Origin: Promethearchaeota archaeon
GTDB lineage: Archaea > Asgardarchaeota > Lokiarchaeia > Sigyniarchaeales > Promethearchaeaceae
Assembly: GCA_016933055.1 (NCBI GenBank)
Contig: JAFGBS010000001.1
Span: forward strand, 210,001 to 242,000
Reading direction: 5' to 3'
Length of the DNA stretch: 32,000 nt
How positions within the stretch are numbered: the first letter of the stretch is position 1; each line of letters starts with the position of its first letter. A model generated the notes under the pieces. It did no database searches and had not been told where the DNA came from. It saw only the letters and a program-made list of their open reading frames with translations. Of the stretch, positions 7,412 through 11,210 are shown piece by piece. Made by a program: the position numbers and the translations under genes.

Positions 7412-8677
7412 TTAATTAACAAATTTTTTTAATTCAGCAGAATTTATGTCTAATTCTGTAGCGATTTGTACCAGTCTCTTGTTCCTTGTAGGTTCATCGT
7501 AAATGGATAAAATCTCATTAATCTGAGGAATTATTTGATTTACAATATCGAGCTTGGATTTGTAGAAAAAATTCTGCAATTCTTCAAGTAGTGTTTCGCC
7601 TGTAAACCTAAATCGAAGGTTTCCTAAATTTGGCATTTTGAACTTTTTATAACCTTTTGAAATTGTTTGTGTAACAGAAACGATCACTCCCCCTGAAACC
7701 AAATCAAAAAAGTAGGATAATAATGAAAAATCCATCCTAGTCATAATTTGATTCATTAAGTTATCTGCATCCAATAAGGTGTTGAATATTTCTTTTCTAT
7801 CTTTTCTATCTAAAATTACTGCTTTCATGTTAGCGTGGATAATTTTATGGATAATTTTGTAGTCAAAATCAATATTGGATAGGATGTCTCTGGCTTTCCG
7901 AATGGTTTTTTGTTCAAACATCGATTGAAGGAAGCTGAATATTTTCTCTTGAATATCACGATGCATATCTAAAAATTCCATATCGGTAAAGACACCTTGT
8001 GAGAGGGCTTGCAAATCATTAATTGCCGAGCGCATATCTCCTCCAGAATTCATCGCGATTGCTTCAACGATCTCATCATCTACTTTCAAGTTTTCTTTTT
8101 CCGCAATTTCCTTCAATAAGTTTGAAATTGTTGCTTTTTGTAGGGATCTACATGGTATTTTTGTAGAAATATCATATAATGATTTGAATTTGGAATCATA
8201 GAAATTACATGTCAAAATTATCGGATTTTTTGTTTTTTTAATCAGCGAGACAATAGCTTTTACACCACCCCGATCACTTTTTCCACTAATTCCATCTACT
8301 TCATCGATTAAAATAATTTTTTTGCGGTTTAATTTTTCTGGCATGAGGTAGGACAATAAATCTGTGGACGATATACTTTCTTCAAGTGTTTCTACAATAG
8401 CATTTTCTGTTCTTATGTCTGATGCATTCATTTCCACTACGCTATATCCTAAATCATTTGCTACCGCGTAAACCACTGTTGTTTTACCGATCCCTGGAGG
8501 TCCTTCTAGCAATATTGCTTTTTGAGATCCACGTATTTTTCTCCCTGCATTTTGCTGTTCTTCGAAATTTTTTATAAAATCCTTTATCTTCTTTATATTT
8601 GTTGAGAAACCCACCATTTCTTTTGTGTTTTTTGGGCGATATTTTTCAACCCAAGGCAATTCTTGTGATTTTTTCAT
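7412..8677 (-). CDS. rfcL: Replication factor C large subunit
   Basis: PWVEKYRP, Walker A GPPGIGKT, EMNASD, Walker B ILIDEVDG and GDMRSAINDLQ. No SRC motif, as expected for the large subunit. Confidence 0.92.
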   Translation of the reverse strand: MKKSQELPWVEKYRPKNTKEMVGFSTNIKKIKDFIKNFEEQQNAGRKIRGSQKAILLEGPPGIGKTTVVYAVANDLGYSVVEMNASDIRTENAIVETLEESISSTDLLSYLMPEKLNRKKIILIDEVDGISGKSDRGGVKAIVSLIKKTKNPIILTCNFYDSKFKSLYDISTKIPCRSLQKATISNLLKEIAEKENLKVDDEIVEAIAMNSGGDMRSAINDLQALSQGVFTDMEFLDMHRDIQEKIFSFLQSMFEQKTIRKARDILSNIDFDYKIIHKIIHANMKAVILDRKDRKEIFNTLLDADNLMNQIMTRMDFSLLSYFFDLVSGGVIVSVTQTISKGYKKFKMPNLGNLRFRFTGETLLEELQNFFYKSKLDIVNQIIPQINEILSIYDEPTRNKRLVQIATELDINSAELKKFVN

Positions 8678-8687
8678 GAGATTCCCC

Positions 8688-9731
8688 TTAAGAGTATTTT
8701 GCTCCTAAATCAATCAAGCCGTAAATTAGATTATCATACATTAGATCCTGACTCGTAGAATCGATTGTGCGAAAATCGATCTGGGATAAAAGATTCACTA
8801 TATCACATTTTATTAATTCTACAACTGGCAGCTTAAACACTTCATCGCACATTATATCAATTATTTCACTGAACACACGGTTGTATTTTTGAATATTAGA
8901 TAGATTATCTTTTACTCGATTGGATTGCTGAGATAATGCATGTCGCAATAATAAACCTACTTCTTCACGCAAATCATTTTTAACCAAACGAAATATTATA
9001 TCGGGATCTATTTCCTCAGAAATAGTTGCCGCTGCTTGAAGGTGTGATATGGAATCTGCAAGACTTCCCTTGGTAGATAGATAAAGAATTTTCGAAATAT
9101 TTCCCTTTAAGATTAGATTTTCTTTTTTTGCAATGAACTCAATCCTTTCTTTAAAGGAAGGAAAATCAATTTGCTTGAAAAAAATAATATTGCAGCGGGA
9201 TATTATGGGATCGATAATCGAAGATATTTGATCGGTTAACAATATCATGCGACAATAGGAAGAATATTTTTCCATTAACCTTCGTAAACCTTGTTGTTGA
9301 TCTTCCAATAGGTGAAAATCATCAATAATCAGGAATTTAATTGGATGGAAGGAAATAGGTTTGATTTCTACAAAGGGTTTTATCCGAGAAAAAATGAATG
9401 CAGGCCATGTAAATCTTCTCCCTGCTGTACTTCCTATTCTCTTTGTGGGTATATAGGAAAGTCGTCTTGTTTCATCCCTTTCTTCTTGGGTCAAGGGATC
9501 AGAAGCATAAACGATTTTACAATTTGTACTAGAACCTTTCCCTAAAACATAATGGGTAAACAATCGGGCTACTTCCATTTTCCCATAGCCTTTTGGTCCT
9601 GTAAACAAAAGATGGGGGATATCTTGTGTCGCTGCAATTTGAGTTAAATTTGCGATCATTTCCTCCCTACCTGGTATCTCATTCAGTGATTTCGGTTGAT
9701 ATTTCAATCTCCAAAGAAAACTTTCATTCAT
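8688..9731 (-). CDS. Divergent second RFC small subunit, probably ATPase-inactive
   Basis: WRLKYQP, PHLLFTGPKGYGKM, IIDDFH, LRRLMEKY and PIISRC. It lies between rfcS and rfcL, and its start overlaps the rfcS stop by 8 nt. Confidence 0.85.
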   Translation of the reverse strand: MNESFLWRLKYQPKSLNEIPGREEMIANLTQIAATQDIPHLLFTGPKGYGKMEVARLFTHYVLGKGSSTNCKIVYASDPLTQEERDETRRLSYIPTKRIGSTAGRRFTWPAFIFSRIKPFVEIKPISFHPIKFLIIDDFHLLEDQQQGLRRLMEKYSSYCRMILLTDQISSIIDPIISRCNIIFFKQIDFPSFKERIEFIAKKENLILKGNISKILYLSTKGSLADSISHLQAAATISEEIDPDIIFRLVKNDLREEVGLLLRHALSQQSNRVKDNLSNIQKYNRVFSEIIDIMCDEVFKLPVVELIKCDIVNLLSQIDFRTIDSTSQDLMYDNLIYGLIDLGAKYS

Positions 9732-10719
9732 TTAGATTTTTCTCCCGTACATTTTCACACAATAATGCGACTAAGGATTCCAATTGAAGAGCCATATCTG
9801 AGCCTAATGTTAAACGAAAATCGATCACACCTATTCCTTCTAATATATTAGAAATGTTTTCGATAGGAATGGATTGAGAGGTAAGAATCCAATCTAACAA
9901 CTGATACAAAAAATTACGTCCGGAAAAATGAAAATCCCTTTGTAAAACGTTCACGCTTTTCTGAAAATTGGATTTAAGAACCTCATCAGCAAACTCAGAA
10001 AAATTTTTAGGATTCAAATACCCGGCAATCTCATATAATCCCGATGTATCATTCGTATCCAATTGTGAAAATATTTGAAGAAAATTAATAGCCTTGCGTA
10101 AATCTCCCATACTTATAAGATATAGCACTTCGAAAGTGTTTTGGGGCAAGTTCAAATCTTCCTTAATCGCAATATCGCGTAATTTGTTTAATACAATTTC
10201 TTTTGGAAGAGGTGAAAATCGAAATAATGCACAACGAGATAAAAGGGGGTCAATTAATCGGTTTTCATAATTACACATTAATAAAAACCGGACATTTGGA
10301 GGAGAACGTTCAATTATTCGTCGTAATGCATGTTGGGGATCTTTTGGAATATTATCAGCTTCGTCTAAAATAACAAATTTAAGAGTGTCAGGTGGTAGGG
10401 AAATATTTTGAGTGATAGAAAATGATTTTATTTCATTCCTAACTGTATTCATTCGCACATTATCACTTGCGTTTAATTCCAAAATCAGTTCAGAAGAGAA
10501 ATTCTGTCCTAAAATGTCTTTTACAAATGCTACGGCACAAGATGTTTTTCCAGTTCCCGCGGGTCCTGAAAAAATCATATGCGGTATCTTTCTCTTCTTA
10601 GCAAAACTTTGAAGTGAAGCAACAATCCAACCTTGACCTTCAATTTCTTCCAACGAAGAGGGTCGATATTTTTCAACCCAAGGTAATGATTCTGTATATT
10701 CTCTTCCTCGACTAAACAC
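9724..10719 (-). CDS. rfcS: Replication factor C small subunit (canonical)
   Basis: PWVEKYRP, GPAGTGKT, ELNASD, ILDEADN, ALRRIIE, LLSRC and GDLRKAIN. Confidence 0.95.
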   Translation of the reverse strand: MFSRGREYTESLPWVEKYRPSSLEEIEGQGWIVASLQSFAKKRKIPHMIFSGPAGTGKTSCAVAFVKDILGQNFSSELILELNASDNVRMNTVRNEIKSFSITQNISLPPDTLKFVILDEADNIPKDPQHALRRIIERSPPNVRFLLMCNYENRLIDPLLSRCALFRFSPLPKEIVLNKLRDIAIKEDLNLPQNTFEVLYLISMGDLRKAINFLQIFSQLDTNDTSGLYEIAGYLNPKNFSEFADEVLKSNFQKSVNVLQRDFHFSGRNFLYQLLDWILTSQSIPIENISNILEGIGVIDFRLTLGSDMALQLESLVALLCENVREKNLNE

Positions 10720-10724
10720 GTGAA

Positions 10725-11210
10725 TTAATCCTCAAATTTTAGTTCCATAACTGTGTATGTAGGTCGAAATTTAAATTCATCAAACTCGAATTCATCATTG
10801 ATTTTATCGTGCAAAGCCGGATCTTGAGGGAGATTCACCTTCACCAGCCGAATATTAGATTTTCGTAATGATTCCAATGCCATCGTTAACAATCGTTTTC
10901 CTAATGATCTCCCTCTGTATTCTTTATCCACATGTATTTGTTTAATATAAGCCTCTGATGTACCAAAAGGATCCACTCGTAATTCGCTAAAGATCATTCC
11001 TGCAAGGTTCCTTGTCTTCTTATCTACAGCAACAAACGTACCATGCCGTTGTAAGGGATCAAAAATCCTTCGCATTATTCCCCAATCAAACCGTTTTTCG
11101 TCAAAAGGCTCATTTTTTTCTTTCTCTTTCACAAGATTGCGTGTTAATCGCTCAATTTCATCTTTATCTTCGGGTAATACCATTCGTAATTCGAATTCTT
11201 CCTTGTCCAT
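10725..11210 (-). CDS. GNAT-family acetyltransferase
   Basis: Acetyl-CoA-binding motif A IHVDKEYRGRSLGKRLL; 161 aa. Confidence 0.85.
   Translation of the reverse strand: MDKEEFELRMVLPEDKDEIERLTRNLVKEKEKNEPFDEKRFDWGIMRRIFDPLQRHGTFVAVDKKTRNLAGMIFSELRVDPFGTSEAYIKQIHVDKEYRGRSLGKRLLTMALESLRKSNIRLVKVNLPQDPALHDKINDEFEFDEFKFRPTYTVMELKFED

Follow-up and report, generated by a model that had tools for sequence, protein, structure and literature searches.

The window, by which we mean the whole stretch of 32,000 nucleotides of Promethearchaeota DNA that was analysed, carries on its minus strand four genes that run head to tail, namely GNAT, rfcS3, rfcS2, and rfcL. The four genes are tightly packed: the GNAT gene ends 5 nt before rfcS3, the stop codon of rfcS3 overlaps the start of rfcS2 by 8 nt, and rfcL starts 10 nt past the rfcS2 stop. 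The gene under study, rfcS2, encodes a paralogue of the replication factor C (RFC) small subunit with a set of altered motifs. The genes and the features within rfcS2 are as follows.

10725..11210, minus strand: GNAT acetyltransferase, 161 aa, first gene of the co-directional cluster (Pfam Acetyltransf_1; weak RimI match)
9724..10719, minus strand: rfcS3, small-subunit paralogue with intact catalytic motifs, 331 aa
8688..9731, minus strand: rfcS2, 347-aa open reading frame, putative ATPase-dead RFC small-subunit paralogue with an arginine finger, probably of E-position type
7412..8677, minus strand: rfcL, RFC large subunit without SRC, 421 aa (NF003229, 313 bits; cut-off 280)
9576..9599, minus strand: degenerate Walker A of RfcS2, GPKGYGKM, in which Met replaces the Mg-coordinating Thr (direct translation)
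9393..9497, minus strand: 35-aa insertion after the box IV ASD, in place of the ERGID loop; constant in length and strongly conserved
9312..9332, minus strand: degenerate Walker B, LIIDDFH, compared with hhhDEAD (direct translation)
9192..9239, minus strand: sensor-1 LTDQ (Asn lost) to the intact SRC, S178-R179-C180 (direct translation)
9051..9068, minus strand: degenerate sensor-2, GSLADS, compared with GDLRKA (Arg lost; direct translation)

Motifs, fold, and neighbouring RFC genes

The sequence-only reading of this DNA had described the degenerate GKM, DDFH, TDQ, and GSLADS motifs together with an intact SRC, and direct translation bears this description out; the segment of 9192-9239 on the minus strand, from sensor-1 through SRC, is translated as LTDQISSIIDPIISRC. 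RfcS2 reaches 176.9 bits, in two stretches, with the canonical archaeal RfcS model NF001679, and this score below the cut-off of 303, combined with the degenerate motifs, rules out that RfcS2 is a canonical archaeal RfcS. The euryarchaeal RfcS2 model NF009067 matches the protein in one end-to-end stretch at 144.8 bits, which is below its cut-off of 317, and the generic clamp-loader AAA+ domain PF13177 gives 37.5 bits. Within its own genome, RfcS2 shares 27% identity with RfcS1 and 30% with RfcS3.

The AlphaFold2 model of RfcS2, obtained with the family alignment as input, adopts the three-domain fold of an RFC small subunit with a mean pLDDT of 84.9, and the insertion is modelled as a helix (residues 82-91) followed by a low-confidence loop (residues 95-104). 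Among the 50 best Foldseek matches in the PDB are 1iqp, 2chq, and the B-D chains of yeast and human RFC, with E-values from 9e-22 to 4e-16, and E chains were not favoured over B-D chains in this search. The predicted structure is that of a clamp-loader small subunit, but it does not discriminate between subunit positions; the global fold is silent on this point because the Foldseek matches are generic and the E chains are not preferred. A complex prediction with RfcS3 and RfcS2 yielded a score of 0.00, which gives no verdict and counts neither for nor against binding.

The gene next to rfcS2 had been taken for a canonical rfcS. This holds for its catalytic motifs, which are intact (GPAGTGKTS, ILDEADNI, MCNY, LSRCAL, and GDLRKA), but not for its identity: with NF001679 the protein scores 293.9 bits, below the cut-off of 303, and the actual rfcS1, the third small-subunit gene, was found on another contig by a profile search of the same genome (G000:C27:124382-125332), scoring 424.9 bits as the sole small subunit of this genome above that cut-off. 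RfcS3 and RfcS1 share 36% identity. With RfcS3 as a query, the best 120 database matches consist only of Asgard RfcS3-type proteins, and all of them are closer to RfcS3 than to the RfcS1 of its own genome. Because these matches sit nearer to RfcS3, sequence comparison identifies the neighbour of RfcS2 as a paralogue in its own right, despite its canonical catalytic motifs. In the alignment, RfcL shows YDIS at the expected site of SRC. A search of sequencing runs matched one DNA set, a sediment metagenome from which the sequence probably derives, and zero RNA sets.

Several observations were made on related small-subunit genes. Of the best 150 representatives found with the RfcS3 profile, about 40 have lengths of 500-1371 aa and match in two or three stretches (P0308-P0445), as is expected for intein-bearing archaeal RfcS. 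The eukaryotic proteins among the best 150 representatives are of RfcC and RfcD types only, with no RfcB. In a genome of another Asgard family (G041:C3:112922-113902; L033, L044), an RfcS1-like match runs across two TAA codons in frame, and only residues 73-317 lie in the open frame, which could reflect a small intron or a broken gene.

Conservation of RfcS2 and the published Lokiarchaeales system

The RfcS2 family comprises 46 homologues, all of which come from metagenome bins of Promethearchaeota or Lokiarchaeota, and beyond them the next matches are ordinary RfcS proteins at 27% identity. SRC is invariant in the family (46/46), as is the box VI region, and a DExD Walker B occurs in none of its members (0/46). 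The form of Walker B differs by subclade, being [DE]DFH in the nearest, mostly [RK]DFH in the middle, and mostly KNFE in the far subclade. The P-loop Thr is replaced by Met, Leu, or Ile (GKM, GKL, or GKI) in 26 of the 28 members of the two nearer subclades, two members of which read GPKEFDKM, and every member of the far subclade that has the region carries GKT (GIGKTT or similar). The Walker A Lys is invariant throughout and most of the P-loop glycines are conserved. The insertion has the same length of 35 residues in every member and belongs to the best conserved parts of the protein, with P79, G100, G104, and F112 being invariant. As judged from the alignment, the degeneration of RfcS2 is neither due to chance nor a one-off event, since all 46 homologues keep SRC and none has a DExD Walker B. 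All Loki RfcS2 also have a one-residue deletion right after the degenerate Walker B, in the region of residue 142, compared to the other aligned small subunits.

Among 150 further genomes sampled from the phylum, full-length RfcS2 orthologues are confined to the order of the window genome, where they are present in 25/25 genomes of the sister family, at about 36-42% identity to the window protein, and in one of the two other genomes of its own family. The order rfcS3-rfcS2-rfcL is kept in all 26 genomes with a full-length RfcS2, which corresponds to 26 of the 27 others searched in the order. In a sister genus of the same family (G089; L045:2851-3690, minus strand), an RfcS2 open reading frame of 279 aa matches residues 4-209 of the window protein, and its C-terminal collar domain appears to be shortened or replaced, for which an assembly or frame error is a possible cause.

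A four-subunit RFC of Lokiarchaeales was described by Feng et al. 2025 (Nat Ecol Evol 9:2333, published October 2025; PMC12680538), and its findings are repeated in a 2026 review. [quoted passage not shown] When the four RFC proteins of Ca. Harpocratesius repetitus are co-expressed in E. coli, all of them purify together, and AlphaFold3 models with 1:2:1:1 and 1:1:2:1 compositions place RfcS2 across the cleft from RfcL, which is the E position, with its insertion filling the DNA chamber at the location of the eukaryotic E-plug (PMC12680538). The authors regard RfcS2 and RfcE as related, with topology tests favouring an Asgard origin, and propose RfcS3 as the group next to RfcC/D (PMC12680538).

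The window gene is the RfcS2 of this four-gene clamp loader, and the window holds its RfcS3, RfcS2, and RfcL. RfcS2 of the window and that of Ca. Harpocratesius repetitus share the operon, the lost Walker B, the kept SRC, and an insertion in the stretch that separates Walker A from Walker B. In the tree of Loki RfcS2 sequences they belong to the same clade, and the window protein lies within the Loki RfcS2 clade with support of 100/100. The two differ in that the orthologue has a consensus Walker A, whereas the window protein reads GPKGYGKM and has lost sensor-1 and sensor-2 as well. We read this difference in the P-loop as variation within the RfcS2 family and not as grounds for exclusion from it. 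Because Feng et al. 2025 describe the same system, the finding is already known in print with its biochemistry, including its bearing on the origin of the eukaryotic heteropentamer. The additions made here are the loss of the P-loop Thr in this sublineage and the conserved GNAT gene directly upstream.

Relationship to eukaryotic RfcE and archaeal S2 paralogues

The system bears on the question of how an archaeal loader made of one large subunit and four copies of a single small subunit could have given rise to the eukaryotic heteropentamer. RfcS2 and eukaryotic RfcE (yeast Rfc5 and human RFC3) have in common an inactive ATP site and a kept SRC. Both also carry an additional element close to the DNA chamber and face the large subunit, the placement of RfcS2 being a predicted one. 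They differ in the state of the P-loop, which is GKKT and still binds nucleotide in RfcE but GKM in RfcS2, and in the extra element, which follows ASD in RfcS2 whereas the E-plug precedes the ELNPSD strand in RfcE. The Walker B Glu, sensor-1 Asn, and sensor-2 Arg are likewise retained in RfcE. With euryarchaeal RfcS2 of Methanosarcina and haloarchaea, the common features are a degenerate Walker B, the loss of the sensor-1 Asn, and an insertion after NASD; Walker A and SRC are mostly kept in the euryarchaeal proteins, which cluster with the Loki and Thor S2 in the tree. The window protein stays far below the cut-off of the euryarchaeal model (144.8 bits on NF009067 compared to 317), and the euryarchaeal complexes have two types of small subunit, not three.

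In Thorarchaeota, an RfcS2-like paralogue, about 370 aa long, is encoded by a stand-alone gene that does not lie beside rfcL (L036-L043, for example L036:2986-4110 on the plus strand, and the record titles of L046-L115). Walker A, DEAD, SRC, and the sensor-2 Arg are mostly intact in these proteins, most copies keeping all motifs but sensor-1, in which the Asn is lost, and an extra insertion of about 50 aa is found at the site of the Loki RfcS2 insertion. This paralogue branches closest to Loki RfcS2 in the tree (94/82).

The tree was calculated from 99 sequences, comprising Loki RfcS2 (11), Thorarchaeal stand-alone S2-like paralogues (4), euryarchaeal RfcS2 above the NF009067 cut-off (11), eukaryotic RfcE (10), RfcS3 and close relatives (16), eukaryotic RfcC (9) and RfcD (13), other archaeal RfcS (22), and RfcL (3); RfcC and RfcD came from the search of representatives, and RfcB is absent. 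A careful IQ-TREE search was run under LG+C20+F+G4 (PMSF) on 322 columns from which the insertion columns had been dropped, and support is given as ultrafast bootstrap / SH-aLRT. A quick tree proved misleading, in that a constraint uniting all eukaryotic subunits scored 11 lnL better than the quick tree itself; the careful search then beat the constrained tree. Rooting with RfcL places the root among the eukaryotic subunits, a position that Chia et al. 2010 found as well, and the root was not relied on. Support for the relevant groupings is as follows.

Loki RfcS2: 100/100
Loki and Thor S2: 94/82
Loki, Thor, and euryarchaeal S2: 80/60
Loki, Thor, and euryarchaeal S2 with RfcE (stem length 1.41): 79/81

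RfcE is separated from RfcC/D by splits with support of 98/94 and 97/90, and the archaeal neighbour of RfcC/D in this unrooted tree is the RfcS3 clade (99/92). When all eukaryotic subunits were held together, with RfcB absent, the AU test did not reject the resulting tree (delta lnL 5.8, p 0.364). None of six fixed placements of RfcE was rejected either, and their p-AU values are listed below.

Sister to all archaeal S2: 0.70
Sister to Thor and Loki S2: 0.56
Sister to Loki S2: 0.12
Sister to Thor S2: 0.31
Sister to euryarchaeal S2: 0.33
With RfcC/D: 0.41 (0.406, bp-RELL 0.34)

The sequence-only reading had suggested a possible kinship of RfcS2 with eukaryotic Rfc5 rather than convergence and had asked for a phylogeny. 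The phylogeny is compatible with either: RfcE joins the S2 superclade (79/81), RfcS2 is joined by the Thor and euryarchaeal S2 first, and the AU test rejects no placement. The competing explanation, which is a real contender though we hold it to be rather doubtful, is that Loki RfcS2 belongs to an archaeal S2 lineage along with the Thor and euryarchaeal S2, whereas RfcE has its own origin in a duplication of eukaryotic small subunits; their resemblance would then be convergent, an analogy at the E position. It agrees with the order of branching, in which RfcS2 joins Thor S2 (94/82) and then euryarchaeal S2 (80/60) before RfcE, and with the survival of the trees that unite all eukaryotic subunits (p-AU 0.364) or RfcE with RfcC/D (p 0.406). 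The decay patterns of RfcS2 and RfcE also differ, and so do the sites of the extra elements; in the alignment of the Walker A-B region, the insertions of all three archaeal S2 groups (Loki, Thor, and euryarchaeal) follow NASD, whereas the E-plug precedes the equivalent ELNPSD strand. On the other hand, the maximum likelihood tree puts RfcE inside the S2 superclade and splits it from RfcC/D, RfcB is missing from the data set, and Feng et al. report relatedness of RfcS2 and RfcE with topology tests for an Asgard origin (PMC12680538). The plug-like elements are probably independent acquisitions because the insertion sites and decay patterns differ, and this would apply even if the subunits share descent. 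As for the subunits themselves, the tree data are compatible with the published kinship of RfcS2 and RfcE without establishing it, and caution is needed in that the placement of RfcE is fragile in the 99-sequence analysis.

Proposed role of RfcS2 in the clamp loader

Within the spiral of a clamp loader, the ATP site of a subunit is completed by the SRC finger of the subunit that follows it, and the site of the E subunit faces the gap. A dead site combined with an invariant finger fits position E and no other position, and with a probability of roughly 0.85 we regard RfcS2 as the E-position subunit of an RfcL/RfcS1/RfcS3/RfcS2 loader, with a dead site of its own and an SRC finger that serves its neighbour. 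RfcS2 most likely lies at the end of the pentamer spiral, beside the gap facing RfcL. Its invariant SRC arginine would reach the ATP site of the active D-position neighbour and help it fire. RfcL, at position A, would have lost SRC because its finger would point into the gap, and the nucleotide site of RfcS2, which would face the same gap, would be allowed to decay since the loss of SRC from RfcL leaves it without an incoming finger. The B-D positions would be shared by RfcS1 and RfcS3 in a ratio of 2:1 or 1:2. The earlier proposal of a dedicated, catalytically inert E-position subunit with SRC is supported by the orthologue, which co-purifies with its partners and is placed at E by AlphaFold3 (PMC12680538). 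For this reading, the motifs, their conservation, the operon, and the fold come from the present analysis, and the co-purification and the AlphaFold3 placement come from the orthologue.

The eukaryotic loop after the NASD box carries DNA-contacting arginines that line the DNA chamber, as known from yeast RFC mutagenesis. Because this is the loop that is replaced in RfcS2, the insertion probably projects into the DNA chamber and plays a role similar to that of the E-plug there; this location is also that of the published model.

The sequence-only reading had further proposed an L:S1x3:S2 complex, which is not supported because the genome has three small-subunit paralogues, of which the earlier reading missed the third, and the adjacent one is RfcS3. 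This composition, in which RfcL combines with three copies of the adjacent small subunit and one RfcS2 as in Methanosarcina acetivorans, would suit the adjacent and co-directional rfcS3, rfcS2, and rfcL genes, and euryarchaeal RFCS1:RFCS2:RFCL complexes are indeed known (PMC2880001). We consider it improbable, however, in light of the more canonical rfcS1 in the same genome, the second small-subunit match in 25/25 sister-family genomes searched, and the co-purification of all four proteins in the orthologous system (PMC12680538). That RfcS2 acts outside the replicative loader, in an alternative RFC-like complex or as a regulator, is very improbable: the extreme decay of its motifs and the extra paralogues leave room for several complexes, but the linkage of rfcS2 to rfcL and rfcS3 is tight and conserved, the SRC finger and box VI region are invariant, and the orthologue co-purifies with RfcL and RfcS1 (PMC12680538).

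Within the four-gene loader, the GKM form of RfcS2 has particular consequences for the E position. With the P-loop Thr lost, Mg-ATP binding is probably weakened or gone, and the protein would then resemble E. coli delta-prime more than Rfc5. Residual nucleotide binding could nevertheless persist, because the Walker A Lys and most of the P-loop glycines are conserved. E. coli delta-prime (HolB) is an E-position stator that binds no nucleotide and donates its SRC arginine to an active neighbour. It belongs to the bacterial lineage and is linked to RfcS2 in sequence only via the generic AAA+ domain PF13177; in function, by analogy, it would be the best counterpart of the GKM-type RfcS2. We tentatively suggest, with less than even confidence, that RfcS2 of this sublineage has decayed beyond the state of eukaryotic Rfc5 into a pure stator of the delta-prime kind without Mg-nucleotide binding, and that the GNAT protein may link acetylation to the clamp loader. 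If so, Lokiarchaeales would offer a natural gradation of E subunits, from those that bind nucleotide to those that do not, and the more decayed member, in which the P-loop Thr is lost, could be used to probe whether the E subunit needs nucleotide binding. Feng et al. 2025 make no mention of the GNAT gene in their text (PMC12680538); it lies directly upstream of rfcS3 in 24 of 25 sister-family loci, where its product is 39-48% identical to that of the window.
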